Positions 574-59,572 of a stretch of DNA of 64,000 bases are shown here, piece by piece (positions within the stretch are counted from its first letter, which is position 1; every line of letters begins with the position of its first letter). A program made the position numbers and the translations under genes. This stretch comes from Acetofilamentum sp. (lineage in GTDB: Bacteria > CAIWAD01), in assembly GCA_020726405.1 (NCBI GenBank), contig DYSB01000001.1, forward strand, positions 7,440-71,439. The letters are read 5' to 3'. The notes under the pieces are model-generated. The model made no database searches, was not told the origin of the DNA, and worked only from the letters and a program-made list of their open reading frames with translations.

Positions 574-876
574 TCAGATCTCCAGGGTCTCGAGCAGAGC
601 CTGCAACCGGCGCCGGGCCTCGTCCAGGCTGGCCGGATCGGGCAGGGCCGCCAGACGCTCGCGCAGGAGGCCCCGCTCCTGCTCCAGTTCATGCACACGT
701 TTCAGGGCCTGGGCCAGGCGCTCTTCCAGTTGACGCAGCTTCTGCTGGGCCTCGCCGCGTTCCCGATCACTGCGCAGCAGCTCCTGCAGCGTCCCGCCGT
801 GGGCGGTCAGCAGACGATCCACTTGCTCTTCGAGCCGCGCCAGGGGATCCACGTCAACTCCGCAGCCTGGCTCCAT
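574..876 (-). CDS. hypothetical all-helical coiled-coil protein (ZapB-like?)
   Basis: 100-aa ORF made entirely of heptad-like Leu/Glu/Arg/Gln repeats (LARLEEQVDRLL...QKLRQLEERLAQALKRVHELEQERGLLRERLAAL). It sits between pheT and zapA on the same strand. Start uncertain; it overlaps the pheT end by ~20 nt if it starts at 876. Confidence 0.4.
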   Translation of the reverse strand: MEPGCGVDVDPLARLEEQVDRLLTAHGGTLQELLRSDRERGEAQQKLRQLEERLAQALKRVHELEQERGLLRERLAALPDPASLDEARRRLQALLETLEI

Positions 877-3256
877 GCCGCTGTTCCGCCTGCTTGAGCA
901 GGTCCGTCACCACCGGGTCCACGTCGGCGTCCGACAGGCTGCGCTCCCGGTCGTTGAAGCGCAGCCGGTAGCTGCGGCTCACGCAACCGTCGGGCACACC
1001 CTTGCCCTGATACACGTCCACCACCTGGACCTGCTGCAAGAGCGGACGTCCGGCTTCCAGCAACGTGTCCGCCAAGGCGCCGGCCGGCAACTCCGCGGGG
1101 CTGATCAGGCTCAAGTCCCGCAGGACCGAAGGCTGGCGGGAGAAGGGCTGGTAGCGGGGCAGCCCCGGCGCCAGGCGCGCCACGGACTCCAGGTCCAGAT
1201 CCAAGGCGAAGACCGGCCACTCCGTGCCCATCCGTTCGCACAGACGGGGTTCCAGCTGGCCGAACACGCCCAGACGCTCCCCGTCCCGCTCGATGGCCAG
1301 CGAATTGGCCGAAAAGACGCCGTCAAGGTAGGGAAGCAAGCGGAGGCCTTCAAGGTGAAGATGGCTCAGCAACAGCAGGACGACTTCCTTGAGATCGTGG
1401 AAGCCATAGGCCTCGGCCGGGCCCTGCCAGCTTTCCGGGCGCAGCTGGCCCACCAGCAGCAGGGCCAGGTGCAGGGACTCGCGGCAGCCGGTGGCGCAGG
1501 CGGGGTCGGGATGGAACTCCCGGTCCAGTTCGAAGAGCCGCTGGCCCTCCGCGCGCCGGTTCAGGTTGTAGACGGCGGTCTCCAGCAGACTGGGCAGCAG
1601 GCTGGGCCGCAGCACGGACATCTCCTGGGAGAGCGGATTGCGGATTTGTAGCACCGGGCGCTCGGGCAGCACGCGCTCCAGCTGGCGCGGGTCCGTCATG
1701 CTGTAGCTCATCACTTGGCGGAAGCCCAGGCCGACGGCCTCCCGGCGCACGCGCTCCAGCAGCTCGCGCCGCGGGTTGCCGCGCTGGCCCAGCGGCACGC
1801 GGGCGGAATCCGGCTGGGGCACCTGCTCGTAGCCCTCCAGCCGCACGACTTCCTCGATCAGGTCGATCTCACGCTCCAGATCGTGGCGCCAGCTCGGCGG
1901 TGTCACGCGGAGGCCTTCGGCGCTGGTTTCGCACTCGCAGCCCAGCGCCTCCAGATGCGCGCGCATGCGCTCCGCGCTCAGGGCCAGGCCCAGCACGGCG
2001 TTGCAGCGCGCGCTGCGCAGAGTCAGCGGTTGGGGCTGCCAGGGCCGGGGATCGGCGTCGGCGCAGCCGCCGGCCAATTGGCCGCCGGCAGTCAGGGCCA
2101 CCAGCGAGCTGGCCCGCCGCAGCACGGCCTCCACATCCCGGGGATCCACGCCGCGCTCGAAGCGCCGACTGGAATCCGAGGACAGGCCCGCCCGCCGGGC
2201 GCCCATCCGGATGCCGACGGAATCGAAGACCGCGCACTCCAGCAGGATCTCCGTGGTGTCCGCGGCGATGCCCGAGTTCAGGCCGCCCATGATGCCCGCC
2301 AGGGCCACCGGGCGCTCGCCGTCGCAGATCAGCGTGTGCTCCACGTCCAGCGTGCGCTCCTGGCCATCCAGGGTGGTGAAACGCTCGCCCGCCGCGGCGT
2401 TCCGCACGTGGATGCGCCGACCCCGGACCTCGCGCAGGTCGAAGGCGTGGAGGGGATGGCCCAGCTCCCACATCACGTAGTTGGTCACGTCCACCACGTT
2501 GGAGATGGAGCGCAGCCCGACGGCCTCCAGGCGGTTCACCAGCCAGCGCGGACTGGGGCCCACGCGCACGCCGCTCATCCGCTGGCCCGCGTAGCGCGAA
2601 CAATCGGCGCAGGCGGGGTCGAGCACGATCTCCACGCGCTCGTCGCCATCCGCTGCCGGGGCGGCCGGCGCCTCCGGCCGGCTCAGCGGGACGCCGCGCA
2701 GGGCGGCCAGATCCCGGGCGATGCCCAGGATGGAATAAGCGTCGCCGCGGTTCTGGGTGATCTCCAGATCCAGCACCACGTCCTGCAGGTTGTAGTCCCG
2801 GGCCAGCGGATCGCCGGGCTTCCAGTCCGCTGGGTCGAGGAGTTTCAGTCCGCTGTGGTCGTCGGAAAGGCCCAGCTCCACCTCGCTGCAGAGCATGCCC
2901 TCGCTGTCCACGCCACGGATGCGGGCCTTCTTGAGCGGCTGCTCCACTCCCGGCAACACGGCGCCCAGTTGCGCCAGGGGTACGGTGAGCCCTTCGGCCA
3001 CGTTGGGCGCGCCACAGACCAAGGTCAGCCGACCTGCGCCGTGATTCACCGTGACCAGCCGCAGGCGGTCGGCGTTGGGATGGGGCTCCACCTTCTCCAC
3101 GAAGGCCGCCACCACGCCGATCAACTCACGCCCGATGCGCTGCACGCTCTCCACCTCGAACCCCAGCATGGTGAGTTCGTGGGTCAGCGCCGCCACGCCC
3201 GCCGGGCTGGTGTCCACCGGCAGGAAATCGTTCAGCCAGGAAAGGGAGATCTTCAT
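854..3256 (-). CDS. pheT: phenylalanine--tRNA ligase beta subunit
   Basis: ORF 854..3319. Conserved PheT N-terminus MKISLSWLNDF begins at the internal start (3256). Product ~800 aa with B3/4 and tRNA-binding regions. Confidence 0.95.
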   Translation of the reverse strand: MKISLSWLNDFLPVDTSPAGVAALTHELTMLGFEVESVQRIGRELIGVVAAFVEKVEPHPNADRLRLVTVNHGAGRLTLVCGAPNVAEGLTVPLAQLGAVLPGVEQPLKKARIRGVDSEGMLCSEVELGLSDDHSGLKLLDPADWKPGDPLARDYNLQDVVLDLEITQNRGDAYSILGIARDLAALRGVPLSRPEAPAAPAADGDERVEIVLDPACADCSRYAGQRMSGVRVGPSPRWLVNRLEAVGLRSISNVVDVTNYVMWELGHPLHAFDLREVRGRRIHVRNAAAGERFTTLDGQERTLDVEHTLICDGERPVALAGIMGGLNSGIAADTTEILLECAVFDSVGIRMGARRAGLSSDSSRRFERGVDPRDVEAVLRRASSLVALTAGGQLAGGCADADPRPWQPQPLTLRSARCNAVLGLALSAERMRAHLEALGCECETSAEGLRVTPPSWRHDLEREIDLIEEVVRLEGYEQVPQPDSARVPLGQRGNPRRELLERVRREAVGLGFRQVMSYSMTDPRQLERVLPERPVLQIRNPLSQEMSVLRPSLLPSLLETAVYNLNRRAEGQRLFELDREFHPDPACATGCRESLHLALLLVGQLRPESWQGPAEAYGFHDLKEVVLLLLSHLHLEGLRLLPYLDGVFSANSLAIERDGERLGVFGQLEPRLCERMGTEWPVFALDLDLESVARLAPGLPRYQPFSRQPSVLRDLSLISPAELPAGALADTLLEAGRPLLQQVQVVDVYQGKGVPDGCVSRSYRLRFNDRERSLSDADVDPVVTDLLKQAEQRHGARLRS

Positions 3257-3286
3257 CGTCACACCGCCATCTGGATTTTTCCGGAC

Positions 3287-3413
3287 GGTCACGAAGTTCA
3301 GGAAGAGGCCGAAGAACACGAAGACGAATCAGGGTGTCACCCGACTGCCGCTTCTCTTCGATCGGTCTCCCGCTTCCTGATCTTCGTTCCGCTTCGTGTG
3401 CTTCGTGTCCCGC
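3287..3413. repeat. palindromic intergenic repeat element, copy A (CGAAG-decamer arms)
   Basis: pheS-pheT spacer is unusually long (168 bp). Left arm 3287-3330: GGTCACGAAGTTCAGGAAGAGGCCGAAGAACACGAAGACGAATC. Right arm 3379-3413: GATCTTCGTTCCGCTTCGTGTGCTTCGTGTCCCGC. The arms are inverted relative to each other and each has ~10-nt periodic CGAAG/CTTCG units. Copy B at 12291-12472 shares GGTCACGAAG and the terminal CTTCGTGTCCCGC. Confidence 0.6.
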
Positions 3414-3424
3414 TCCGGGTCCGC

Positions 3425-4426
3425 TCAGAATTGTTCGAGGAAGCGCCAGTCGTTTTCGTAGAAGAGCCGGATGTCGTCCACACCGTAGAGCAGCATGGCC
3501 ATGCGCTCCACGCCCAGGCCGAAGGCGAAGCCCGTCCACTCCTCCGGGTCCAGGTCCACACCGGTCAGCACGGCGGGGTCCACCAGGCCGCTGCCGCCCA
3601 TCTCCAGCCAGCCCGAGTGCTTGCAGACCCGGCAGCCCGCGCCGCCGCAGAAGATGCAGCTCACGTCCACCTCGGCGCTGGGCTCGGTGAAGGGGAAGAA
3701 GTGCGGCCGGAAGCGCAGGCGCGTGTCCGGCCCGAACATGCGGCGGTAGAACTCCAGCAGCGTACCCTTCAGGTCGGCGAAAGTCACGCCGTGATCCACG
3801 TAGAGGCCCTCCACCTGCATGAACATCGGGCTGTGGCTGGCGTCCGGCTTGTCGTTGCGGTAGACGCGGCCCGGCGCAATGATCCGCACCGGCGGCTTGA
3901 CCTGCTCCAGCACGCGGATCTGCACCGGGCTGGTCTCCGTGCGCAGCATGTGGCCCTGCTGCAGGTAGAGGCTGTCGGACTCCATTCGCGCCGGATGCCA
4001 GAAAGGCGTGTTGAGCATGTCGAAGTTGTAGCGCTCGGTCTCCACTTCCGGGCCGTCCTCCACGGTGAAACCCATCCGCGTGAAGATGCCCGTGATGCGG
4101 TCCAGGATCTGCTGCAGCGGGTGCAGGGAGCCCGTCCGGACGGGGTGGCCCGGCAGGGTGAGGTCCACACGGGCCACGCCCTCGCGGTTCAGCAGCTCCT
4201 CCTGGCGGGCCATGAAGACGGCCTCCAGTTCCTCCTTCAGCACGTTGATCTGCGCGCCAAAGGCCGGGCGCTCTTCGGCAGGCAGCTCGCGCATCTGCTT
4301 GAAGAGGTCCTGCAGCCGCCCCTTGCGGCCCAGCCAGCCCTGATGCACGGCCGCCAGGGCCTCGCGGTCCGCGGCGGCGGCCAGGGCGGCGAGGAACTCG
4401 GCGCGCAGGCTGTCGAGGGTGTTCAT
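3425..4426 (-). CDS. pheS: phenylalanine--tRNA ligase alpha subunit
   Basis: ORF 3425..4618. The PheS-like product starts at the internal ATG (4426): MNTLDSLRAEF. Class II aaRS motifs FRPHFFPFTEPS and GLGVERMAMLLYGVDDIRLF are present. Confidence 0.95.
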   Translation of the reverse strand: MNTLDSLRAEFLAALAAAADREALAAVHQGWLGRKGRLQDLFKQMRELPAEERPAFGAQINVLKEELEAVFMARQEELLNREGVARVDLTLPGHPVRTGSLHPLQQILDRITGIFTRMGFTVEDGPEVETERYNFDMLNTPFWHPARMESDSLYLQQGHMLRTETSPVQIRVLEQVKPPVRIIAPGRVYRNDKPDASHSPMFMQVEGLYVDHGVTFADLKGTLLEFYRRMFGPDTRLRFRPHFFPFTEPSAEVDVSCIFCGGAGCRVCKHSGWLEMGGSGLVDPAVLTGVDLDPEEWTGFAFGLGVERMAMLLYGVDDIRLFYENDWRFLEQF

Positions 4427-4583
4427 GGTGTGCTCCACGTCCGTTGAAAACTCAAGCTCCCGGGATCGACCGGTTTTCCAGGTCCGCACTTTGCCGGGCC
4501 ACTCGTCTGCACTGCGCTCCGCGCGCCCCGACAAGGAAAAGTCCCCGCGCGGGGGACATTTCCAGGTGCGATTCCGGGCTGCG

Positions 4584-4934
4584 CTAGCGCAAGGATCGCA
4601 CCAGCTCGCCAAAGGCATCCGGTTCCCGGACGGCCAGGTCGGCCAGCTGGCGGCGGTCCAGCGTGACGCCCTTCACATCCAGCAGATGGATGAACGTGCT
4701 GTAGTTCATCTCGGTGTCGTGGATGCGCACCGCGGCGTTGATGCGGGCGATCCACAAGCGGCGGAACTCGCCCTTGCGAACCTTGCGGTGCATGGTCGAG
4801 GTGGCCAGGGCGCGATCCACGGCTTGCAGCGTCTGGCGCAGCAGGTTCTTGCGACCGCCGCGGAAGCCCTTGGCCAGGGCGAAGACGCGCTTGCGACGAG
4901 CCTTGGAGGCGGGATTGTTTGTTGCTCTCGGCAT
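4584..4934 (-). CDS. rplT: 50S ribosomal protein L20
   Basis: 116 aa, MPRATNNPASKARRKRVFALAKGFRGGRKNL...; typical L20. Confidence 0.97.
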   Translation of the reverse strand: MPRATNNPASKARRKRVFALAKGFRGGRKNLLRQTLQAVDRALATSTMHRKVRKGEFRRLWIARINAAVRIHDTEMNYSTFIHLLDVKGVTLDRRQLADLAVREPDAFGELVRSLR

Positions 4935-7731: not shown

Positions 7732-7824
7732 GGTCCCCAGCCTTTCTGTTTGACCGGAGTGACGTGCGCCAGGACGTCATCTCCTTGTCGCGGAATGATT
7801 TCGGTCCTTCAGGACCTCCGCGAG

Positions 7825-7899
7825 TGGGCGACACGGGATTTGAACCTGTGACCTCTTGCGTGTCGAGCAAGCGCTCTAACCAACTGAGCTAGCCGCCCC
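7825..7899 (-). tRNA. tRNA-Val (anticodon GAC)
   Basis: Reverse complement reads GGGCGGCUAGCUCAGUUGGUUAGAGCGCUUGCUCGACACGCAAGAGGUCACAGGUUCAAAUCCCGUGUCGCCCA. 7-bp acceptor stem, D arm GCUC/GAGC, anticodon stem CUUGC/GCAAG with loop UCGACAC (GAC), T loop UUCAAAU. One A-C mismatch in the T stem. CCA not encoded. Confidence 0.85.
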
Positions 7900-7986
7900 C
7901 AGAAGCCGCGAAATGTAGAGTTGCCCGAGGCTGGAGTCAAGAACTCAGGTAGATTTCTCGTTGACTTTGTCGTTGGGGAGGAGATG

Positions 7987-8174
7987 TCCACAGATTACAC
8001 AAATTACACGGATCAAAAACTGTTTTCATCTGAAACCAAATTTTGTCGCAATTGATGGTCATTCTAAATACCTGCAACTTTCAAACCTATTGACAGATAA
8101 TATGAGTTTAACGATGCAGTGTAGCATTTATTCAATTTATTGCCTTAATTCGTGAAATTTGTGTAATCTGTGGA
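7987..8174. mobile_element. MITE-like element with 19-bp perfect terminal inverted repeats
   Basis: TCCACAGATTACACAAATT at 7987-8005 and its exact reverse complement AATTTGTGTAATCTGTGGA at 8156-8174 flank ~150 bp of strongly AT-rich DNA in an otherwise GC-rich genome. The repeat extends to ~24 bp with one mismatch. No transposase-like ORF; track ORF 7961..8155 inside is low-complexity. No clear target-site duplication. Confidence 0.5.
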
Positions 8175-8193: not shown

Positions 8194-9618
8194 CTACCTC
8201 CCGGCGCCGCGCAGCACCGTGCGCACCGTATAGAGCAAAATGCGCAAGTCCAGGCCCAGGCTCATGTTCTCCAGGTAGAACAGGTCCAGGCTGAGCTTGT
8301 CCTCCAGCCGGGTCAGGCTCTGGTCGTAGCGCTGGCGCACCTGGGCCCAGCCCGTCAGGCCGGGTCGGACGTTGTGGCGGCGGGCGTAGAGCGGCCAGCG
8401 GCGGATGTATTCGTCCACCAGCGCCTTCTGCTCCGGGCGTGGCCCCACCAGCGACATCTGCCCGCGCAGCACGTTCCAGACCTGGGGCCACTCGTCCACC
8501 CGGTAGCGGCGCAGCACGCGGCCCAGCGGCGTCAGGCGCGGATCATGCTCGGTCACCGGGGGCGGGGCGCCGCTCTCCAGGGTCGCGACGGTGTCGGCGT
8601 GCAGCATGGCCACGTGTTCGGCCGGGTGCAGGGTGCGGAACTTGAGCAGCGTGAACTCCCGCCCGCCGCGCCCCACCCGGCGCTGGCGGAAGAGGGCGGG
8701 CGCCCCCGGGCTCTGCCAGTGGATCAGCGGCGGCAGGATGAGCAGCAGCGGCAGGCCGGCCAGCCCCAGCAGCAGGCCCGCGCCCAGATCCAGCCCGCGT
8801 TTGAGCAGGAACTGCCAGGGCGCCATCAGGTGCGGGAAGACCTGGATGACCGGCATGCCCCAGATGTCGAAGGCCTTGAGGTTGCCCAGCACCAAGTCGT
8901 AGAGGTCGGGCACGATGAGCACGTCGGCGCCCTGGCGCGTGGCACGCTGGATCACTTCGAAGAGCAGCTCGCGCTCGGGCTCCGTGACCACCACTTCCAC
9001 CACCTGGCGCTCGCGGATCAGCGGCTCCAGCTCGTCCAGGCCACCATCGGCGGCGGACAGGCCGGCGACCTCGCCCTGCCCGGGCGGCCGCACGCGGGCC
9101 ACCACGCGGTAACCCATCCCGGGATGGAGGCGGAACTGCTCCAGCAGCTGGCGGGCCCGCTCGCCGGAGCCCACCACCAAAGTGGCGCGCTGCCCCAGCC
9201 CGCGCTCCAGCAGGCGCTTCTGCACGGTGCGGAACAGCACGCGGCCGGTGCCCGCCCCCGCCGCCAACACCAGGCCGTAGCTAAGCAGCAGCAGGCGCGA
9301 GGCCGAGAGCGCCGGGCGGCCCGGCTCCAGCGTGATCACGAAGAGCAGGATCAGGCCCACCAGCACGGAGGCCGCCACCTCCTGCACGGCGCGGTAGCGG
9401 CTGACGTGGTAGAGCTTGCGGTACTGCCCGCGCAGGGCGAAGATCGCCAGCCAGAACAGGCTGAGCACCAGGTAGGCGGCCAGAGGTAGTTGGAAGGGCT
9501 CGGGCTCCGTGAACAGGCCCGAGCGGAAGCGCAGAAACCAGGTGAGCCAAGTGGAAGCCCAGATGCTGGCGAAGTCCACCACCACCAGGAACAGCCGTTC
9601 CCAGGACAGGCGTCTCAC
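8194..9618 (-). CDS. undecaprenyl-phosphate sugar phosphotransferase (WbaP/EpsB-like initiating EPS transferase)
   Basis: 474 aa with N-terminal TM helices and a C-terminal bacterial sugar-transferase domain (LVGPRPEQKALVDEYIRRWPLYARRHNVRPGLTGWAQV). Confidence 0.85.
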   Translation of the reverse strand: MRRLSWERLFLVVVDFASIWASTWLTWFLRFRSGLFTEPEPFQLPLAAYLVLSLFWLAIFALRGQYRKLYHVSRYRAVQEVAASVLVGLILLFVITLEPGRPALSASRLLLLSYGLVLAAGAGTGRVLFRTVQKRLLERGLGQRATLVVGSGERARQLLEQFRLHPGMGYRVVARVRPPGQGEVAGLSAADGGLDELEPLIRERQVVEVVVTEPERELLFEVIQRATRQGADVLIVPDLYDLVLGNLKAFDIWGMPVIQVFPHLMAPWQFLLKRGLDLGAGLLLGLAGLPLLLILPPLIHWQSPGAPALFRQRRVGRGGREFTLLKFRTLHPAEHVAMLHADTVATLESGAPPPVTEHDPRLTPLGRVLRRYRVDEWPQVWNVLRGQMSLVGPRPEQKALVDEYIRRWPLYARRHNVRPGLTGWAQVRQRYDQSLTRLEDKLSLDLFYLENMSLGLDLRILLYTVRTVLRGAGR

Positions 9619-9636: not shown

Positions 9637-11280
9637 TCAGATACTGCGCGCCACCAGCACAACGGTCATGATCTGGGAGGCAACCAGCAGGCCTTCCTTG
9701 AACTTCTCCCAGGCGGTGAGATCCTCCCGCGGCACCAACATCAGGGCGTCGCCGGCGGCCATTACAGTTCCCAGGGAGGCAGGGCTGAACTGGTCCTCCC
9801 CCACGTGGCGCAGGCGCAGCTCGTTGAGCCGCGCGCCACGCAGCTTGCCGCCCGCGGCTTTCAGGTAGTCGCGGACCGTCCACCCATCCCGCCAAGCCTG
9901 GACACCCGGATGCTTGACGGCGCCCAGCACCTCCACGTCGTCGGAGCGGCGCAGCACGCGGACTTCGTCGCCGTCGGCCAGAATCAGGTGCGCGGCGTCC
10001 AGGCGTCCATTCTCGTAGACCACCGACACCCTGCCGCCCTCCTGGATGACGCGGGCCTTGAGGTATTCCCGTTCGAAGCGCGAGATGTCGCTCCCCGCAC
10101 TTCGCAGCTCCGCGAAGTTCCTCTCCAAGTCCATCTCCGGCCGGCGGGTGACCTTGATGGCCATGAGCGCGGCAGACTGGCTGTCCGGCTGGGCCCACTC
10201 CAGCAATTCCGCCAACGTCGTCTGACCCGGATTGATCGCGTAGGGCCCGGGCCGCAGCACGCGTCCGTTGATGGTCACCTGTTTGGACATGTCCTGGAGG
10301 TTGTCCGCCCGCATGTAAAGGCGGTCGTAGGCTTGAATGCTGATGCCCCGGTACTCGGGGGACTGCTCACTGAAGCGCCAATTGCCGACGAAATTGCCGA
10401 AGGGATCGAAGCGCACCAGTTCGTACGCCACGCCCGTCAGGCCGATGCGCGGCCCGCCCAGAATCTCCACGATGTCCGCCGGCGTATCGCCCTCGCGGAA
10501 CTCCACTTCGTCCTGGCCTTGCCGGAAGGAGCCAAACACGCGGACGATGGAATTGCGGAAGCTGAACAGGATCCGGTCACCGCTCTCCAGCACCGGGTCC
10601 TGCTCCAGATCACCCGTGCGCAGGTATCTGAGCAGGTCCACGTGTAGAGCGCTGTCGCCGCGAACCACTTCCACGTTGCGGAAGGCCAGCGGCATTTCCT
10701 GGGCCAGGGCCGAGACCTGCTGCAGGGCGCCACTGGTGCTGGTGGAAGGCACCATCATTTGCTGAGCCGCCGCGCCACGGAAGTTGGGCAGCCAAGTGGG
10801 CGGCTTGAGCACCGTGTGCAGGCGCGTGGTGTAATTCAACTCCAGAAACCGGGGCACCAGGTCGGCGCCGCTCACCGTCACCTGGATGCGGCGGGGGCGA
10901 GCCACCCACACATCCACGGAGTCGCACCCGTACATGATGGCCAGGCGCGGTCCCAGCCTGCGACGCAGTTCCAGCAGACTCAGTCCGGCCACAGACACGC
11001 GGCCCAGACCTGGCAGTTCCAGCCGGCCGTCCGTGTCCACCAAGTCTTCCTTGCGGTTCAGATCCACGTTGAAGGCCAGATGCCCCACCAGGTCGCCGGG
11101 ACCGAGGATGTACTCCGCCGGGTCCACGGGCTGGTCCAGGATCCAGTCCGCCATGGGGGTCGCCGTGGCGCCGGAGGCGGTGGTTGTTTTCTTGATCATG
11201 CCCAGATCGAACTGGGCGACGCCCGTTCCCACCCCGGCCAGCAGGGTCAGCAGCAGCCAGCAAACCGACATTCGCCTCAT
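9637..11280 (-). CDS. polysaccharide export outer-membrane protein (Wza-like, SLBB domains)
   Basis: Signal peptide MRRMSVCWLLLTLLAGVGTGVA starts at the internal ATG (11280), whose ATGA overlaps the stop of the upstream gene. PGDLV and ILGGPRIGLTGV-type soluble-ligand-binding beta-grasp repeats typical of Wza/KpsD-family exporters. Confidence 0.8.
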   Translation of the reverse strand: MRRMSVCWLLLTLLAGVGTGVAQFDLGMIKKTTTASGATATPMADWILDQPVDPAEYILGPGDLVGHLAFNVDLNRKEDLVDTDGRLELPGLGRVSVAGLSLLELRRRLGPRLAIMYGCDSVDVWVARPRRIQVTVSGADLVPRFLELNYTTRLHTVLKPPTWLPNFRGAAAQQMMVPSTSTSGALQQVSALAQEMPLAFRNVEVVRGDSALHVDLLRYLRTGDLEQDPVLESGDRILFSFRNSIVRVFGSFRQGQDEVEFREGDTPADIVEILGGPRIGLTGVAYELVRFDPFGNFVGNWRFSEQSPEYRGISIQAYDRLYMRADNLQDMSKQVTINGRVLRPGPYAINPGQTTLAELLEWAQPDSQSAALMAIKVTRRPEMDLERNFAELRSAGSDISRFEREYLKARVIQEGGRVSVVYENGRLDAAHLILADGDEVRVLRRSDDVEVLGAVKHPGVQAWRDGWTVRDYLKAAGGKLRGARLNELRLRHVGEDQFSPASLGTVMAAGDALMLVPREDLTAWEKFKEGLLVASQIMTVVLVARSI

Positions 11281-12275
11281 CGTGTCCCGTCCTCCATTCG
11301 TCGGTGCAGGCCGCCCGTCCAGGCCTTGTTGTCGGAGTACCAATCCAGGGTGCGGGCCAGTCCGTCCTCAAAATCGACGCGCGGGCGCCAGCCTAGTTCG
11401 CGTTCCAGTTTCGTGGCGTCGATGGCGTAGCGCAGGTCATGGCCCGGCCGGTCGCCCACGAAGCGGATCAGGCTCTCGGGCTTGCCCAGCTTGCGCAGCA
11501 GCAACCTGACGATCTCGATGTTCCGCCACTCGTTGTTGCCGCCCACGTTGTAGACGGCGCCATCCGCCGCGCGGGTGAAGACGGTCCAGAGCGCCTCCGC
11601 GTGGTCCTCCACGTAGAGCCAGTCGCGCACGTTGAGGCCCCGGCCGTAGACGGGCAGTTCCTCGTCGCGCGTGGCCTTCCAGATCATCAGCGGAATCAGC
11701 TTCTCGGGAAACTGGTAGGGCCCGTAATTGTTGCTGCAGCGCGTGAGCACGGCCTCCACGCCGAAGGTGCGGCGCCAGGCCTGGAGAAGCAGATCGCCCG
11801 CCGCTTTGCTGGCGCTGTAAGGACTGGAGGGCGCAAGCTGCGTCTCTTCCGTGAAGCGCCCGCCGCCCTCGCCCAGGTCGCCGTAGACCTCGTCCGTGGA
11901 CACCTGCAGGAGGCGCAGGCGCCGGCCCCGGGCCTGCTGGGCTCGCAGGCCGTCCAGCAGCACACGCAGCCCCAGGATGTTGGTGCGCAGGAAGACGTCG
12001 GGATCGTCGATGCTGCGGTCCACATGGCTCTCGGCCGCGAAGTTGATCAGGCCGTCCACGCGCTCCAGCAGGGAATTCACCAGCCTTAAGTCCAGGATGT
12101 CCCCGTGGACGAACTCGTAGCCTTCCCGGCCCTCCAGCTCCGCCAGACTCGCGCGGCAGCCGGCGTAGGTCAACGCGTCCAGGTTGACGACGGCGTGCTC
12201 CGGGTGTCGCGCCCGCAGCCAGCGGATGAAGTTGCAGCCGATGAATCCCGCCCCGCCGGTGACCAGCAGCCTCAT
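11277..12275 (-). CDS. rfbB: dTDP-glucose 4,6-dehydratase
   Basis: MRLLVTGGAGFIGCNF Rossmann start (internal ATG at 12275). YSASKA catalytic motif and NNYGPYQFPEKLIP are typical of RfbB. Confidence 0.85.
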   Translation of the reverse strand: MRLLVTGGAGFIGCNFIRWLRARHPEHAVVNLDALTYAGCRASLAELEGREGYEFVHGDILDLRLVNSLLERVDGLINFAAESHVDRSIDDPDVFLRTNILGLRVLLDGLRAQQARGRRLRLLQVSTDEVYGDLGEGGGRFTEETQLAPSSPYSASKAAGDLLLQAWRRTFGVEAVLTRCSNNYGPYQFPEKLIPLMIWKATRDEELPVYGRGLNVRDWLYVEDHAEALWTVFTRAADGAVYNVGGNNEWRNIEIVRLLLRKLGKPESLIRFVGDRPGHDLRYAIDATKLERELGWRPRVDFEDGLARTLDWYSDNKAWTGGLHRRMEDGTR

Positions 12276-12290
12276 GCGGCCTCCGCTCCA

Positions 12291-12472
12291 GAGGTCACGA
12301 AGAGCACGAAGGCCGGAGAAGCACACGAAGAGAAGAATCGAGTTGGGGATCGGATCATTGCGGCATCATCCATGCCATGCGTCAATTGTTCGCTTGCCAC
12401 CAGACAATCCAGTTCTCTCATGCTCTGGCCCTTCGTGCCCTTCTTCCGACTTCGTGAACTTCGTGTCCCGCC
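12291..12472. repeat. palindromic intergenic repeat element, copy B
   Basis: Left arm 12291-12340: GAGGTCACGAAGAGCACGAAGGCCGGAGAAGCACACGAAGAGAAGAATCG. Right arm 12429-12472: CCCTTCGTGCCCTTCTTCCGACTTCGTGAACTTCGTGTCCCGCC, ending 1 nt from the TAG stop of the 592-aa gene. Same architecture and shared end motifs as copy A. Confidence 0.6.
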
Positions 12473-14251
12473 CTAGACCCGCGCCCGGCGGCTCTCCAGG
12501 TAGAGGGCCACGATCAGCACCAGCAGCGCCGTGCCGGCCATCACGGGCCAGGCCAGCAGATCCTGGAAGCGGCCGATGGCCAGGCTGATGCGGCCCATCA
12601 CCGTGTAGCCGAAACTGGCGCCGAAACTCATCATCAGGAAGGCGATGCCCACCTTGGAGACCACGCCCAGCGCGCCCGTGTGCTTCTTGGAGAAGAAGAA
12701 ATAGAACACGCCCGCGCAGACGCCGATCACCACCAGCAGGTTGGAAAAGATCTCCACCAGCATGTTCACGCGCATCTGGGTGGGGCTGCCCGTCACGCCG
12801 TAGGGTTCGAGGAACCCCGCCGGATCCCGGCGGAAAGCGTCCAGTTGGAGCCGCGTGTAGGGCGTCACCCGGTCCGGGCTGGTGTGCAGCGCGATGGTGT
12901 GCCGCAGCCAGCCCTGGCGCAGCAGACGCAGCTCGCGCAACACGCCCGCGCGCCAGTAACTCAGGAAGGCCGCATCGGCCGCCCGCCGGGCGGAATCCGG
13001 CAGCCCGGCGAAGATCGCCAGCTGGGCCTGCAGTTCGGACCGGTACCCGCCGTCCAGCGGGGCCAGCCGCGCCAGCAGGTTCCGCACCTGCTCGGCCTTC
13101 CATTCACCCAGCAGCACGGGCCGCGGATTGACTTCACTCAAGAGCGAGTCCGCCAGCCGACGCGTGACGGGCAGGCTCCAATCGGGCTGGCGTTCCGCGG
13201 GAAAGCCCTCGCTCTTCAGCAGCTGAACCAGGGGCGGACGGCCCGCCGGGAAGGCCAAGGCCTCCGCGGCGACAGCCGGCGCCAAGTCGAGGTAGCGGCC
13301 GCAGGCCTCCAGCAAACCCGCGCGGCCGGCGGGCGACTCCAGCCAGACGCGCGTGGCCACGAGGACCAGCCGGTCCTGCCAGGGCGCCAGCTCCGTTGTG
13401 GGCAGCTGGCCCGGAGCGGGCAGGCTCTCCTCCACGGGCATGCCGCCCAGCCCAGCGCAGAGCAGGCGCTCGAACTCCGCGTCCGCGCCCACCACCGCGG
13501 CTTGGCCCACGCGCATGGCCTTGAAACCCTCGCGCACCCGGGACTCCGGGGCTTCGATGTCGCTCAGACCCGCCAGCCCGTTGAGGCGCTGCTCCAGCTC
13601 CCCTTGCCAGGCCAGTCCGGCAGCGGCGGCGCGGCTGGAATCCTCCCCCAGCGCTTGCAGCCAGTCGGCGATCCAGTCCACCTGGGCCTGGCGACGCGCG
13701 CCCATTTCCCCTTGCGGCAGCACGCCCGCCGACTCCATGGCCGTCACCACCGTCTCCTTGCCGGAGAAGTCCTTCATGGTGGCTTCCAACTGCGGCACCA
13801 GCGCGCCCTGGGCGGCCTGGATGATCTGGATCCCGGCGAAAGCGCCGATCACGTAGGCCAGCGGCCAGCGGCTCAGCCAGTGCAGTTTGCGGCTGATTTT
13901 GAACAGCATCAGGATGCCCAGAGCCAGGAAGACGTAGTAGATGAACTGCCCGTGGGCTAGCCGCTCCAGCAGGCTGACGGGGTGGTCCGGGTAGGCCTCG
14001 GGCGCCAGTTGGCCCGCGCGGAAGAGCTGCTGGCGCACCGCGTCCACGGGCGGCAGCAGGCGGTTGATCAGATTGGGCCGGAGGATCTGGAACCAGACCA
14101 GCACCACGCCGTAGCCCGTGGAGACGCCCACGAAGACGTGCTCGGCGAACTTGTAGAAGGGGTTGTCCTGGTAGAGGAAGCTGAAGATCATCAGCGTCGA
14201 GAAACAGACCAGGAAGGCCCCCAGGACCTCCACGGAGAAGAGCGCGCCCAT
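12473..14251 (-). CDS. uncharacterised integral membrane protein (592 aa); TM helices at both ends, long Ala/Leu/Arg-rich helical middle
   Basis: Hydrophobic N-terminus (MGALFSVEVLGAFLVCFSTLMIFSF..., VFVGVSTGYGVVLVWF). ~350-aa hydrophilic helical region. 3-4 C-terminal TM segments (LVVIGVCAGVFYFFF, IAFLMMSFGASFGY, AGTALLVLIVALYL). Start at 14251 shares a nucleotide with the stop of the upstream gene. No family recognised. Confidence 0.65.
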   Translation of the reverse strand: MGALFSVEVLGAFLVCFSTLMIFSFLYQDNPFYKFAEHVFVGVSTGYGVVLVWFQILRPNLINRLLPPVDAVRQQLFRAGQLAPEAYPDHPVSLLERLAHGQFIYYVFLALGILMLFKISRKLHWLSRWPLAYVIGAFAGIQIIQAAQGALVPQLEATMKDFSGKETVVTAMESAGVLPQGEMGARRQAQVDWIADWLQALGEDSSRAAAAGLAWQGELEQRLNGLAGLSDIEAPESRVREGFKAMRVGQAAVVGADAEFERLLCAGLGGMPVEESLPAPGQLPTTELAPWQDRLVLVATRVWLESPAGRAGLLEACGRYLDLAPAVAAEALAFPAGRPPLVQLLKSEGFPAERQPDWSLPVTRRLADSLLSEVNPRPVLLGEWKAEQVRNLLARLAPLDGGYRSELQAQLAIFAGLPDSARRAADAAFLSYWRAGVLRELRLLRQGWLRHTIALHTSPDRVTPYTRLQLDAFRRDPAGFLEPYGVTGSPTQMRVNMLVEIFSNLLVVIGVCAGVFYFFFSKKHTGALGVVSKVGIAFLMMSFGASFGYTVMGRISLAIGRFQDLLAWPVMAGTALLVLIVALYLESRRARV

Positions 14252-40111: not shown

Positions 40112-40239
40112 GGCTCCTCCTCTGATCAACATCTCGGTAAATTGCGATCGCCGGCACCGTCATCCAACGCCCGGCTTCCGGCGAAGCCGGATTCCCTCGG
40201 CCTTCGTTATCACTTCGGCGCAGGTTCGCGCAGCGACTT

Positions 40240-40264
40240 CTTCCCCCGCCCCCGGCGGGGGAAG
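40240..40264 (-). terminator. perfect 11-bp GC stem-loop 3' of folE (no U-tract)
   Basis: CTTCCCCCGCC-CCC-GGCGGGGGAAG at 40240-40264. A second hairpin, CCGGCTTC-CGGC-GAAGCCGG, lies ~70 nt further downstream. Confidence 0.35.
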
Positions 40265-40300
40265 GGACTCGGGCTTCGCCGGGATTACAGGTCCCCACCC

Positions 40301-52100: not shown

Positions 52101-52556
52101 TCAGTTGCCTTCCAGCACGCGCTCGTCGTACTCGGCCTCGAAGCGCCGCTTGTGCAGGCCCTCCTCCTCTGCCAGGCGCTCGAAGAGCGCGCGCAGGGAA
52201 TCGCCGGGCGCCACGCGGGCCAGATCCAGGTAGAGCTGGCGGGCCGCCGCCTCGCGCTTCATGGCCACGATCAGGGCCTGGGCGTAGTCCAGGTCGGTGG
52301 TGATCTCCGGCATCTCCACATAGTCGGAGATCTTCAGGTCCGCGAAGGCGGCCGCCGCGGCCTGTTCGAAACCGCCCTGGTCGCGCACGGCGATCAGCCG
52401 GTCGCGGTGGCTCTTCTCTTCCTCGGCCATCTCCAGCAGGGCGTCGCGCATCTCGCGCCTCTGCATCTTCACCGAGAGCTGGGTGTAGAAGCGCGCGGCC
52501 TCGATCTCCCGCTTGATGGCGAAGTTCAGGGCCTCTTCGGCGTTGGCGAATTGCAT
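52101..52556 (-). CDS. rubrerythrin/ferritin-like diiron protein
   Basis: 151 aa, all-helical, with paired E-x-x-H-like motifs (EMAEEEKSHRDRL ... AEEEGLHKRRFEAEYDE). Confidence 0.65.
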   Translation of the reverse strand: MQFANAEEALNFAIKREIEAARFYTQLSVKMQRREMRDALLEMAEEEKSHRDRLIAVRDQGGFEQAAAAAFADLKISDYVEMPEITTDLDYAQALIVAMKREAAARQLYLDLARVAPGDSLRALFERLAEEEGLHKRRFEAEYDERVLEGN

Positions 52557-52602
52557 CGGTCGATCTCCTGCCTGCTCGCTTCTACTACATCAACCCGAGA
52601 CT

Positions 52603-52713
52603 CAACACAGAGACACAGCATCAGAGATGGCTTGGAAACGAATCGGATCCTGCACTTTCCGCCGCGCCTGTTTCTCATTCAATCTTCGTCTCTGTGCCTC
52701 TGTGCCTCTGTGG
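52603..52713. repeat. diverged third copy of the palindromic intergenic repeat (CACAGAG/CTCTGTG arms) with an 8-bp tandem repeat
   Basis: Left arm AACACAGAGACACAGCATCAGAGA (52604-52627). Right arm AATCTTCGTCTCTGTGCCTCTGTGCCTCTGTGG (52681-52713), containing TCTGTGCC x2.9. Arm ends AACAC...ATCAG and ATCTTCGT match copy A (AACACGAAGACGAATCAG and GATCTTCGT). Lies 26 nt 3' of the nfnB stop and ~45 nt 5' of the rubrerythrin start. Confidence 0.45.
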
Positions 52714-52741
52714 TGAGAGGCCTCCCCCGGTCGAATCCCCC

Positions 52742-54181
52742 TCAGGCGGCGGATCCTTCCTTGCCCATCAGGTCCTCGTGGATGGCCAGGGCCGCGCTCT
52801 TGCCAGCGCCCATGGCCAGGATCACCGTCGCCGCGCCGATCACGATGTCGCCGCCAGCGTAGACGCCGGGCATGCTCGTGCGGCCCGTGCTGTCCTCGGC
52901 CACAATGTTGCCCCACTTGTTGAGCTTCAGTTCGGGCGTGACCTCGGTTAGCAGCGGGTTGGCCCCGTTGCCGATGCTGACCACCACCGTGTCCGCTTCC
53001 ACCACGAATTCGCTGCCCTCCACGGGCACCGGCCGGCGCCGCCCACTGGCGTCGGGCTCGCCCAGCTCCATGCGCAGGCAGGTCACGCCGCTCACGTTGC
53101 CCTGGCCGTCCCCCAGGATGTTGACCGGGTTGCAGAGCAGGCGCATGTGGATGCCCTCCTCCTCGGCGTGGTGGATCTCCTCGCGCCGGGCGGGCATCTC
53201 CTCCATCGAGCGCCGGTAGATGACGCTGACTTCCGCGGCGCCCAGGCGCAGCGCGGTGCGGGCCGCGTCCATGGCCACGTTGCCGCCGCCGAAGACGGCC
53301 ACCCGCTGACCGGGCCGGACGGGCGTGTCGTTGCGGGGAAAATCGTAGGCCTTCATCAGGTTGACGCGGGTGAGATATTCGTTGGCGCTGTAGACGCCGT
53401 TGAGGTTCTCCCCGGGGATGTTCATGAAGTAGGGCAGGCCGGCGCCCAGGCCCAGGAAGACGGCCTGGAAGCCCTCCTCCTCCAGCAGCTCCTGGACGGT
53501 GATCATCTTGCCGATCACGGCATTGTAGACGATCTCCACGCCCAGTTTGCGCACGTAGTCCACCTCCGCCTCCACGATGTCCTTGGGCAGGCGGAATTCG
53601 GGGATGCCGTACATCAGCACGCCGCCGGGCTTGTGCAGCGCCTCGAAGATGGTCACCGAGTGGCCGCGCAGGGCCAGTTCGCCAGCCACCGTCAGGCCGG
53701 CCGGCCCGCTGCCCACCACGGCGATGCGCTTGCCTGTGGACGGGGCCAATGCCGGGGCCTTGACCTCGCCCTGCTCGCGCTCCCAGTCGGCCGCGAAGCG
53801 CTCCAGCCGGCCGATGGCCACGGGCGTGTGCTTGCGGCCCACCACGCAGACCTGCTCGCATTGGGTCTCCTGGGGGCAGACCCGGCCGCAGACGGCGGGC
53901 AGGGCGTTGTCGTGCTTGATCAGGTCGATGGCGCCCTGGAAATCGCCCTGGCGGATCTTCACCACGAAGCCGCGGATGTCGATGCCCACCGGGCAGCCCT
54001 GGATGCAGGCGGGATCCTTGCACTCCAGGCAGCGGCTGGCCTCCACCATGGCCGTCTCCGGCGAATAGCCGATGGGCACCTCGAGAAAATTGCGGGCCCG
54101 CACCTGGGGATCCTGCTCGGGCATGGGCTGCCGCGTCACGGCGCCTAGTTTGGCCTTGGGCAGGGCGGCGTACTCGCTCAT
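52742..54181 (-). CDS. NADPH-dependent glutamate-synthase-beta-like oxidoreductase, large subunit (NfnB/SudA/GltD family)
   Basis: Start MSEYAALPK (internal, 54181). N-terminal 2x[4Fe-4S] Cys motifs (CLECKDPACIQGCP, CGRVCPQETQCEQVC). FAD and NAD(P) Rossmann folds (VAVVGSGPAGL, VAVFGGGNVAMD). Confidence 0.85.
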   Translation of the reverse strand: MSEYAALPKAKLGAVTRQPMPEQDPQVRARNFLEVPIGYSPETAMVEASRCLECKDPACIQGCPVGIDIRGFVVKIRQGDFQGAIDLIKHDNALPAVCGRVCPQETQCEQVCVVGRKHTPVAIGRLERFAADWEREQGEVKAPALAPSTGKRIAVVGSGPAGLTVAGELALRGHSVTIFEALHKPGGVLMYGIPEFRLPKDIVEAEVDYVRKLGVEIVYNAVIGKMITVQELLEEEGFQAVFLGLGAGLPYFMNIPGENLNGVYSANEYLTRVNLMKAYDFPRNDTPVRPGQRVAVFGGGNVAMDAARTALRLGAAEVSVIYRRSMEEMPARREEIHHAEEEGIHMRLLCNPVNILGDGQGNVSGVTCLRMELGEPDASGRRRPVPVEGSEFVVEADTVVVSIGNGANPLLTEVTPELKLNKWGNIVAEDSTGRTSMPGVYAGGDIVIGAATVILAMGAGKSAALAIHEDLMGKEGSAA

Positions 54182-55050
54182 GACGTCCTCCCGGCATAGG
54201 GCTGGTCGCGGCCGATGTGGCAGACGTGGTCGGCCTCGAGGGCCTGGCGTTCCTGGGTCAGATAGGCGCGCTGGCGCTGCTGCAGCTCGGCGAAATCCAC
54301 CGCGTGGCCGTCGAATTCCGGGCCGTCCACGCAGACGAAGCGGCTGCGGCCGTCCACTGTCACGCGGCAGCCGCCGCACATGCCCGTGCCATCCACCATG
54401 GTGGCGTTGAGGCTGACCACCGTGGGAATGCCGTGGGCGCGGGTGACTTCGCTCACCGCGCGCATCATCACCACCGGGCCGATGGCCACCACCTCGTGGA
54501 TGGTCTCGCCGCGGTCGATGAGATCCTGCAGCACGTTGGTGACGAAGCCCTGGCGGCCCTTGCTGCCGTCGTCCGTGCAGATCAGCAGCTCGTCGCTGGT
54601 GGCGCCCATCTCATCTTCCATGATCAGCAGCTCGGCCGTGCGGGCGCCGAGGATCGAAATCACGCGGTTGCCCGCGGCCTTCATGGCGCAGGCGATGGGA
54701 TGGACCGGCGCGGTGCCGATGCCGCCGCCCACGCAGACCACCGTGCCCTTGTTCTCGATGTGGGTGGGGCGACCCAGCGGTCCGGCCAGGTCGAGGATGG
54801 AGTCCCCCACCTCCAGGCGGCCCAGCTCCAGGGTGGAGTGGCCGACTTCCTGGAAGATCAGGCGGATCCAGCCCGCCTCCGGATCGGCGTCGGCAATGGT
54901 GAGCGGAATGCGCTCGCCCGTTTCGCTGACCCGCAGCATGACGAACTGGCCGGCCTGGCGCTTCCGGGCGATGCGCGGAGTTTCCACCAGCAGGTCCTTC
55001 ACGCCGGGCGAGAGGATCCGTTTGCGTAGAATTTTGTTCATGTTCTCCAT
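54178..55050 (-). CDS. FAD/NAD(P)-binding [2Fe-2S] oxidoreductase small subunit (PyrK/NfnA/SudB-like)
   Basis: 290 aa with a ferredoxin-NADP reductase-like fold and C-terminal GMCGGCRV Cys cluster. Stop overlaps the start of the large subunit. Confidence 0.85.
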   Translation of the reverse strand: MENMNKILRKRILSPGVKDLLVETPRIARKRQAGQFVMLRVSETGERIPLTIADADPEAGWIRLIFQEVGHSTLELGRLEVGDSILDLAGPLGRPTHIENKGTVVCVGGGIGTAPVHPIACAMKAAGNRVISILGARTAELLIMEDEMGATSDELLICTDDGSKGRQGFVTNVLQDLIDRGETIHEVVAIGPVVMMRAVSEVTRAHGIPTVVSLNATMVDGTGMCGGCRVTVDGRSRFVCVDGPEFDGHAVDFAELQQRQRAYLTQERQALEADHVCHIGRDQPYAGRTS

Positions 55051-56327: not shown

Positions 56328-57024
56328 ATGTGGCCCTTCCTGATCGTCCACTGGTTCACCTCGCTGTTCTTCCAGACCTTCTACCATCACCGCTACGCGT
56401 CGCATCAAATGTTCAGCCTGACGCCGCGCACGGAGCGCGTGATCCACGTGCTGGCCTTCCTGGCCCAGAGTCCGTCCTTCCTCTAACCCCCGGGCCTACG
56501 CCATCCTGCACCGCCAGCACCACGCCTACAGCGACACGGCGCGCGACCCGCACAGCCCCGTCCGGCACCGCACGGTGATCGGCATGCTGCGCGACACCCT
56601 GACCCACTTCGACGCGGCCCGCCGGCGGGACAACCCCGAGATGGAGCGCCTGGCCGCCCACACGCCGGACTGGCCGGCCTTCGACCGCTTCGCGGACACC
56701 TGGACCACGCGCATCGCGTTGGGCGGCGTCTGGACACTTGTCTACCTGCTCTGGGCGCCCTCTCCCTGGTGGCTGCTGGCCCTGCCTGTCCACTGGCTGA
56801 TGGGGCCGATCCACGGCGCCATCGTCAACTGGGCGGGCCACAAGTACGGCTACGTCAACCACGGGGACACGGACGACCATTCCCGCAACACGCTGCCCGT
56901 GGACCTGCTGCTGCTGGGGGAACTCTACCAGAACCACCACCACCACGCGCCCACCCGGCTGAACTTCGCCCACCGCTGGTTCGAGCTGGATCCGGCCTAC
57001 TGGATCATCCGGCTGCTGGGCTGA
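56328..57024 (+). pseudogene. fatty-acid desaturase (membrane diiron, His-box family) interrupted by +1 frameshift and in-frame TAA
   Basis: ATG 56328 with AGGAGG RBS. His box 1 (FYHHRYASH), then TAA at 56484-56486 after 52 codons. The +1 frame continues through His box 2 (ILHRQHHAYSDTARDPHSP) and His box 3 (YQNHHHHAPTRLN) to 57024. Removing one nucleotide near CTCTAACCCCC would restore ...SPSFSNPRAYAILHRQHH. Confidence 0.6.
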
Positions 57025-58489: not shown

Positions 58490-58519
58490 GCAAGGCAATC
58501 GGACGGATCCGGCTGTGCG

Positions 58520-59527: not shown

Positions 59528-59572
59528 GGTCGACTCCTTGGTCAACGGGTGATTCAAGCTCCGCTTCGTCGG

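Follow-up and report, generated by a model that had tools for sequence, protein, structure and literature searches.

The window considered here, a stretch of 64,000 nucleotides (nt) of Acetofilamentum sp. (contig DYSB01000001.1), raises the question of what fills the gap between two of its genes. Pfam confirms both genes, pheS at 3425-4618 and pheT at 854-3256, each on the minus strand, and a spacer of 168 nt (3257-3424) separates them. The initial annotation had described inverted, internally periodic arms in this spacer, at 3287-3413, and the sequence is as described there. These arms belong to one of four elements in the window: A (3281-3418), B (12293-12468), C (52601-52717) and D (7987-8174). 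Each of the four is an inverted pair of arrays of three to four heptads, phased at 8-10 nt, around an unrelated loop. The heptad is CACGAAG in A and B, CACAGAG in C and CACAGAT or CACAAAT in D. With a probability of about one half, such elements are non-autonomous repeats acting at the level of DNA, which are mobile or rapidly replaced in gene spacers and are recognised through their phased heptads.

The arms were delimited by gapped self-alignment, and their scores were compared with those of 1000 dinucleotide shuffles of each spacer. The inverted-repeat scores are 31 (A), 36 (B), 28 (C) and 45 (D), and 0 of 1000 shuffles reach any of them; the shuffles have a mean of about 14 (14.4 for copy A) and a maximum of 27. 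Owing to indels in the arms, three of the four copies escape a gapless inverted-repeat detector, and gapped and regular-expression methods were used instead. The heptad CACGAAG is found 23 times in the window versus 8.6 expected (0 of 100 shuffles), and ten of the 23 lie inside A and B. Arrays of at least three generalised units C[AG]CN[AG]A[GT] number three versus 0.075 expected, with a maximum of two in 200 shuffles. Copies B and C had been recognised from the start as a second and a diverged third copy. Both are real, B with three exact CACGAAG units in each arm, and C with a different type of unit, CACAGAG, at an 8-nt period. The count of three had missed copy D, which was found by repeat search. 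The units had been taken for CGAAG-type decamers; their periodicity stands (9-10 nt in A), but the decamer is replaced by a 7-nt core, CACGAAG, and the period in C is 8 nt. An arm had been placed 1-26 nt past the upstream stop codon, which agrees with the distances of 6, 4 and 24 nt in A, B and C. The parts of the four elements are the following.

Copy A, left arm, 3281..3323: CCGGACGGT-CACGAAG-tt-CAGGAAG-aggc-CGAAG-aa-CACGAAG, with heptads at 3290, 3299 and 3317 (plus strand).
Copy A, loop, 3324..3372: 49 nt, 61% G+C, with no relation to the loops of the other copies.
Copy A, right arm, 3373..3418: CTTCCTG, CTTCGTT, CTTCGTG and CTTCGTG at 3373, 3382, 3392 and 3401 (minus strand), then TCCCGCTCCGG; it ends 6 nt short of the pheS stop codon (3425-3427).
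Copy B, left arm, 12293..12330: exact CACGAAG at 12296, 12305 and 12324; the start codon (12273-12275) of a dTDP-glucose dehydratase-like gene is 17 nt away.
Copy B, right arm, 12431..12468: exact CTTCGTG at 12431, 12450 and 12459; the stop codon (12473-12475) of a 592-aa gene is 4 nt away.
Copy C, left arm, 52601..52627: degenerate CACAGAG-type units CACAGAG, CACAGCA and TCAGAGA.
Copy C, right arm, 52689..52717: three exact CTCTGTG with an 8-nt period (52690, 52698, 52706), then GTGAG; 24 nt from the stop codon (52742-52744) of an NfnB-like gene.
Copy D, left arm, 7987..8016: TC-CACAGAT-ta-CACAAAT-ta-CACGGAT-caa.
Copy D, loop, 8017..8144: 128 nt, 32% G+C, a compositional outlier.
Copy D, right arm, 8145..8174: ttaATTCGTG-aa-ATTTGTG-ta-ATCTGTG-ga, the third unit being CACGGAT on the left and CACGAAT on the right; 19 nt from the stop codon of a sugar-transferase gene (8194-9618, minus strand).

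Elements with the same construction are present in loci fetched from other genomes and contigs (designated by L numbers, with 8-15 kb examined per locus), and their grammar can be described in some detail. The canonical form is tt[c/a]AC-(CACGAAG-RR)2-CACGAAG ... CTTCGTG-(YY-CTTCGTG)2-GT[g/t]aa, and 123 exact triple arms give the consensus tt[c/a]AC-CACGAAG-RR-CACGAAG-RR-CACGAAG. At the terminus, C occupies position -1 in 85% of arms, and A occupies position -2 in 75-79%. The mode is three units per arm, and the step from unit to unit is 9 nt in 524 of 653 cases. The loop measures from 6 to more than 370 nt. A typical element is 60-250 nt long, is bounded by terminal inverted repeats and has no coding capacity. 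In the same loci, the same architecture is built from CACAGAG, CACGGAG, CGCGAAG, CACGGAT, CACGAAT and CACAAAG. The related heptads therefore constitute a CACRRAK superfamily, to which copies C and D belong.

The two arrays of an element have a preferred order. A forward array (F, CACRRAG) precedes its complement (R) in 164 cases and follows it in 16, and the inverted pair is therefore one unit. The arms carry the same heptad in 103 pairs and different heptads in 61; a clean hybrid in L075 has three CACGAAG opposite three CTCTGTG. The 2-nt spacers between heptads vary (GA 28, CG 16, GG 15, AG 14, AA 12, and others), whereas the heptad is invariant, so that slippage alone is insufficient and the heptads must be constrained. 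The spacers are fully complementary between the arms in 23 of 66 cases versus 10 expected (maximum 21 in 2000 permutations), which indicates that the arms are related as copies, and that spacer pairing is not maintained. The fetched loci also contain many solo arrays.

The initial proposal of a dispersed intergenic family is borne out by many copies beyond the window, and the condition named there as refuting it, an absence of further copies, fails decisively. The source organism is uncultured. The PheS nearest to that of the window is 91% identical and comes from a JGI metagenome, and the named relatives, at 60-73%, are metagenome-assembled genomes (MAGs) of Calditrichaeota, KSB1 and Zixibacteria. 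The elements have a far wider distribution. The pattern CACGAAGNNCACGAAGN{2,14}CACGAAG has at least 120 matches in contigs representing one genome per species, versus about 3-4 expected by chance. In contigs labelled viral, which may include non-viral DNA, CACGAAGNNCACGAAG has at least 120 matches, including clean inverted pairs, and triples of CACGAAG and of CACAGAG have at least 120 each. The terminus of the A/B type, CGGGACACGAAGNNCACGAAG, was found at 76 loci in a complete metagenome scan. According to the record titles, the species-representative matches listed span at least 15 phyla. They include Acidobacteriota, Planctomycetota, Verrucomicrobiota, Chloroflexota, Desulfobacterota, Alpha-, Beta- and Gammaproteobacteria, Nitrospirota, Gemmatimonadota, Spirochaetota, Chlamydiota, Methylomirabilota, Binatia, Bacteroidota and others. 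Isolates, too, occur among the matches listed: Herpetosiphon aurantiacus DSM 785, two other Herpetosiphon, Desulfobacter vibrioformis DSM 8776 and Thioalkalivibrio denitrificans ALJD. Neither PLSDB plasmids nor INPHARED phages were matched in a BLASTN search with a canonical element; either these cultured plasmid and phage collections are free of the element, or the short query was too weak. The hits of a viral scan for the arm type of copy D, CACAGATNNCACAAATNNCAC, were nearly all repeats within coding sequence, for example PQM tracts, and the scan was uninformative.

Some of the fetched loci combine the arrays with other repeats. In five metagenome contigs of about 40% G+C (L471, L500, L503, L509 and L538), two CACGAAG units that lack a nearby partner array come directly after a palindrome, TCCCGATAGCTATCGGGA. 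A viral contig of 70% G+C (L302) has solo CACGAAG triples followed by CAACGG-type runs, as if repeat grammars were combined. In Herpetosiphon (L168, L169, L212, L238 and L147), the spacers are crowded with the heptamers GGGGTCA, CGCGAAG, GATGAGG and TAGAGCA beside the CACGAAG arrays, in a manner similar to the cyanobacterial STRR repeats.

Comparison of related loci shows that the occupancy of a given spacer changes rapidly. A CACGAAG-type element is present between pheS and pheT in the window and in the loci whose PheS is 91% (L001) and 89% (L248) identical to that of the window. In L250 (87%) its place is taken by a CACGAAT-type element with a 10-nt period. In L002, L005 and L249 (83-85%), the spacers are 93, 44 and 43 nt long and contain no element; copies B and D are absent from L002 and L249 as well. 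Where the flanks are about 95% identical, a CACAGAG-type element in L412 corresponds to a CGCAGAT-type element in L428, and CACAGAG/CTTCGTG arrays in L422 correspond to an unrelated TAGTCTA tandem repeat in L434. Different variants between such similar flanks amount to replacement, not gradual divergence.

Complete elements are also found in new surroundings. Five contigs from lake metagenomes (L481, L516, L528, L534 and L539) share a composite of about 230 nt that contains a CACGAAG hairpin with the same loop, although the flanks around it are unrelated; one of the five has lost three units, the number of units differing between L539 and L534. Copies that share a loop occur within L454 and within L139. 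In L283, a complete CACGAAG element lies within the loop of a CACGGAG element. Whole elements are amplified in tandem in L194 and L217. The array of L194 (5250-5900, a Bacteroidales MAG) has at least seven tandem units of 85 nt, whose hairpins set three CACGAAG against three CTTTGTG, a pairing that is G·U-compatible on one strand only.

By combining these observations, it is possible to outline how a mobile or rapidly replaced repeat of this kind could work. The element would consist of two inverted arrays, usually of three CAC-R-R-A-K heptads 8-10 bp apart (mostly 9), with ends of the form ...AC-CAC...GTG-GT... and a loop of 20-200 bp with free sequence. A trans-acting DNA-binding enzyme would read the phased heptads at both ends, or the hairpin that they form in single-stranded DNA. 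Gene spacers, and the loops of copies already present, would be the places where this enzyme inserts or replaces the element, without target duplication, and the number of units would afterwards drift by slippage. Such a reading is suggested by presence and absence at orthologous sites, by replacement, dispersal, nesting and breadth, and further by the composition of copy D (32% G+C versus 67% for the window), the paired unit, the constraint on the heptads and the strand symmetry discussed below. Active transposition and a cognate protein are the conjectural parts of this scheme, whereas the existence of the family, its architecture and breadth, the constraint on its heptads, its strand symmetry and its rapid turnover are established by the data. 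A bolder version of it is offered tentatively and is the less probable of the two. All these elements might form a pan-bacterial, phage-borne superfamily of heptad-array hairpins (CACRRAK, ...AC-CAC) that is moved or maintained by a hitherto undescribed mechanism, either a transposition that leaves no target duplication and recognises the phased sub-terminal heptads or the single-stranded hairpin made of them, or a widely transferred protein selecting for the arrays to which it binds.

Several observations weigh against mobility. In about 65 elements, direct repeats of 2, 3, 4, 5 and 6 nt at the inverted-repeat boundary, as a target-site duplication would leave, number 4, 0, 0, 0 and 0, where chance alone would give 5.2, 1.0, 0.3, 0.2 and 0.01. 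In the MAG MFD02416.bin.2.262 and the sample SR_TP_S13sol, near-perfect arms enclose loops with no relation in either length or sequence, a pattern not usual for copy-and-paste MITEs (miniature transposable elements with inverted repeats), and turnover of the loop or maintenance specific to the arms is needed to account for it. The empty sites obtained are too distant to set the exact boundaries of insertion. No transposase lies between arrays among 23 inspected pairs that are 0.4-3.5 kb apart, ten inner open reading frames (ORFs) of which were scanned. Clustering of the neighbouring proteins in the fetched loci found no transposase and no recurrent gene family or function beside the arrays, only generic families such as sigma-54 activators, ABC ATPases, TPR, enoyl-CoA hydratase and AMP-binding proteins. 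Likewise, no RAYT turned up near the arrays in the 8-15 kb of each locus, and the bracketed genes are ordinary. An excess of minus-strand genes between F..R arrays was dismissed as only apparent, because the arrangement is strand-symmetric by construction. Furthermore, the collection scans relied on exact heptad patterns, their counts being lower bounds, and the gene calls in the fetched loci on crude ORF heuristics.

The last point of this kind comes from a phage contig, L423 (IMGVR_UViG_3300005936_000040), in which PHROGs identifies crAss-like structural proteins (head closure Hc3, virion structural protein) and Pfam gives no match. About ten clusters of CACAGAG arrays occupy 14 kb of it, in nearly every spacer of the structural module. 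The usual order is a stop codon, F, the loop, R and then a further R array that ends ...CTCTGTGAGAGATAATTATG at the next start codon; where, as is often the case, two R arrays succeed each other, the second ends 10 nt before that codon. One F arm could therefore pair with either of the two successive R arrays. Such dense arrays in a compact phage genome suggest that the signal is used there and resemble a working signal more than a parasite, and this keeps alive both the binding-site and the RNA explanations.

In the first of these, the arrays are operator-like sites of a chromosomal DNA-binding protein, either nucleoid-associated or a global regulator, which are held in place by selection on the host or the phage, and their pairing reflects the symmetry of the complex. 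This explanation accounts well for heptads that are invariant between variable spacers and loops, for the phasing at 9 bp, for arms that combine different but related heptads, for the many solo arrays, and for the density in the phage structural module with arrays abutting start codons. It is also the one adopted by the Geobacter authors for their class 1-3 sites (PMC2700814). On the other hand, no gene function is enriched near the arrays, and a separation that ranges from 6 to more than 370 bp is hard to reconcile with a single complex. Moreover, close relatives differ in what occupies an orthologous spacer, or have nothing there, and a cognate protein for the same heptad would be needed in at least 15 phyla. 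Regulatory binding sites are an unlikely explanation of the family, but the idea is compatible with mobility because a transposase is also a binding protein.

A function in RNA, in which the hairpin after a cistron would stabilise the 3' end, be processed by RNase III or act as an attenuator, is somewhat more doubtful still. The positions of the elements speak for such a signal, with an enrichment in co-directional spacers. The placed pairs are in co-directional, convergent and divergent spacers in 90, 18 and 16 cases, against a background of 321, 103 and 103 among those spacers of these loci that measure 60 nt or more. The median distance to the stop codon upstream is 23 nt, and that to the next start codon is 38 nt. 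The long imperfect mRNA hairpin proposed in the initial annotation is partly upheld: the predicted folds pair the arms in all four window copies, but the z scores against shuffles are -1.5 (A), -2.9 (B), -0.8 (C) and -4.7 (D), so that only B and D are clearly more stable and A and C fold no better than shuffled sequence. The one-strand G·U compatibility of the tandem copies in L194 also speaks for RNA. The suggested role of the hairpin in the mRNA, however, receives no support from the other comparisons. The sense and antisense folding energies do not differ (n=38 elements, p = 0.47), and transition mismatches compatible with G·U number 82 in the sense and 80 in the antisense orientation (97 elements). 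The flanks are T-rich on the 5' side and A-rich on the 3' side on both strands, and this symmetry leaves no U-tract after the stem in either orientation. An intrinsic (Rho-independent) terminator is ruled out for this reason, and a terminator scan of copies A-D found nothing. Rfam 15, at gathering and E-value thresholds, finds only two tRNAs in the window, and in canonical copies only sub-threshold miRNA-like hairpin noise. The spacers between heptads are often unpaired, some elements join arms of different unit type, and structure alone would leave the identical sequence across phyla unexplained. Together, the results favour a strand-symmetric, DNA-level feature and leave selection on the transcript unsupported; the mRNA hairpin would be a by-product of the DNA-level element.

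The poorest candidate is a passive by-product of replication slippage and quasi-palindrome correction with no recognising factor, which fits the variable number of units between alleles or paralogues (L539 and L534), the tandem amplification in L194 and L217 and the fact that, of the long simple repeats of prokaryotes, heptanucleotide ones are the most frequent (Mrazek 2007, cited in PMC4679880), but is improbable because slippage would copy whole 9-mers, whereas the spacers differ between identical heptads, and because the same heptads and AC-CAC terminus recur across phyla with a strong preference for F..R (164 versus 16).

If the superfamily is what it seems to be, one short DNA grammar, three phased CACRRAG heptads, inverted, around anything, fills the spacers of many phyla and phages. 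Should the bolder version given above also hold, the reach of these elements would be comparable to that of REP/RAYT, with a sequence conserved across phyla. Such elements break assemblies, make spurious ORFs and lengthen the spacers within essential operons such as pheST, and they may also influence expression or recombination. Direct tests are feasible, since cultured carriers include Herpetosiphon aurantiacus DSM 785, Desulfobacter vibrioformis DSM 8776, Thioalkalivibrio denitrificans ALJD and Geobacter metallireducens GS-15.

The surroundings of the four copies within the window complete the description. Besides pheS and pheT, Pfam supports an RmlB/GDP-mannose-dehydratase-like gene (11277-12275), rubrerythrin (52101-52556) and an NfnB-like oxidoreductase (52742-54379), as well as thrS and a sugar transferase. 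The start codon of the 397-aa pheS ORF is probably set too far upstream. All of copy B is covered by a 123-aa ORF on the plus strand (12105-12476), which is spurious and exemplifies a false gene call made by an element. The whole of copy D lies just upstream of a promoter-like site (7940-7912) and the gene of a tRNA-Val (7824-7898). This site, TTGACTC-N16-CTCTAC(A/C)TTTCGCGG, is on the minus strand 5' of the tRNA-Val (7912-7940) and is conserved in L002 (6485-6520) and L005 (6497-6535). A further intergenic inverted repeat, at 40178-40282, consists of CCGGCGAAGCCGGATTCCCT and AGGGACTCGGGCTTCGCCGG, which are 90% complementary, and is placed between genes with ends or starts at 40132 and 40301. 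CGAAG/CTTCG motifs occur in it, together with an inner hairpin, GGGGGAAG...CTTCCCCC, and its type is other than that of the heptad arrays. At 56328-57024, the frame of a fatty-acid-desaturase-like gene seems broken: a 52-aa N-terminal piece stops at about 56486, and the match of a separate ORF (56575-57024) to PF00487 covers the C-terminal half alone and stays below the gathering score, so that the desaturase is possibly a pseudogene. Beside the PhoU/Pst phosphate-transport operon lie tandem paralogues, at 57140-58192 and about 58500-59570, neither of which has a Pfam match. They contain the direct repeats D2, D8 and D11, which are 71-76% identical at an offset of about 1.4 kb; the second paralogue is in short ORFs and may be decayed.

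The elements can be compared with several known systems. The candidates parS, Chi, integron attC, the ends of Mu and Tn7, the NarL 7-2-7 heptads and the MraZ boxes were dropped for lack of a sequence fit, as was mimicry of the sarcin-ricin loop or of the anti-Shine-Dalgarno sequence. DnaA boxes were also dropped, only the ends of copy D resembling TTATCCACA. The eukaryotic Foldback (FB) transposons have long inverted termini made of short tandem sub-repeats, variable in number, around a variable middle. They are far larger and have target-site duplications, and the likeness is an analogy only. The cyanobacterial STRR are another heptamer repeat of the cross-phylum type; unlike the STRR/LSSR type, the present elements have a 7-nt core within a period of 8-10 nt, with a variable spacer, and form inverted pairs. 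Direct repeats of the heptamer TAACTGA, for which there is no known mechanism, are common to Beggiatoaceae, Cyanobacteria and Bacteroidetes (MacGregor 2015, PMC4679880). They too place an identical heptamer in the intergenic DNA of distant phyla, but are contiguous 7-nt repeats, are almost never inverted and are mostly just upstream of starts (PMC4679880).

With bacterial MITEs, such as the Correia elements of Neisseria, the family shares a non-coding length of 60-250 bp, terminal inverted repeats, an intergenic position, insertion polymorphism and nesting. It differs from them in that target-site duplications are absent, the fetched loci yielded no autonomous partner, the loops are often unrelated within a genome, and the inverted repeats are made of phased sub-repeats.

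Among the roles proposed for REP and BIME are mRNA stabilisation and protein binding. The initial likening of the elements to REP/BIME is justified by their intercistronic position, mosaic combinations and many copies. As in REP, BIME and REPIN, short extragenic palindromic sequences in high copy lie in co-directional spacers after stop codons, in mosaics or clusters, without target duplication. The defining features of REP are nevertheless missing. A REP is a single palindrome of 20-40 bp that carries a GTAG or CGTC tag and is frequently associated with RAYT genes (PMC3733652). Identity with REP is rejected, since the present arm is a direct array of heptads that is not self-complementary, pairing occurs only between arms, and the GTAG/CGTC tag is missing from the terminus logo (123-147 arms, tt[c/a]AC-CACGAAG). 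REP sequences are species-specific, whereas the heptads of the present elements are common across phyla. When compared with REPIN, the spacers are unrelated within MFD02416.bin.2.262 and conserved in some subfamilies.

The closest parallel is with the class 2 predicted global regulator binding sites of G. metallireducens (Aklujkar et al. 2009, PMC2700814). In that paper, 21 pairs of sites are described, each site with three tandem TCTCCGTS[Y] units (= CACGGAGA). The members of a pair are on opposite strands at a variable distance, in intergenic positions that include intra-operon ones (proB-proA in a sister class) (PMC2700814). Its authors considered the class 2 sites unique to that genome and suggested IHF/HU binding, without a test (PMC2700814). 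The novelty claimed in the initial annotation is limited accordingly: no Rfam family matches and the REP features fail, but paired triple repeats were annotated in G. metallireducens in 2009. The heptad grammar, its variants and its spread across phyla and phages appear to be undescribed in the literature searched, in which the sequence strings themselves brought up only primers and unrelated matches, while the architecture is known from this one Geobacter genome. Judged from the published description, both systems have about three tandem units of about 9 nt in opposite-strand pairs at variable distance. Compared by the published consensus, the unit TCTCCGTS[Y] (reverse complement RCACGGAGA) is unlike the CACGAAG, CACAGAG and CACAGAT/CACAAAT of the window. 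CACGGAG-type copies in the fetched loci, however, have the terminus ttCAC-CAC...GTG-GTGaa in common with the CACGAAG type, and the two types nest. Since the terminus is the same and the units differ, the window copies can be regarded as sister variants of the class 2 sites.

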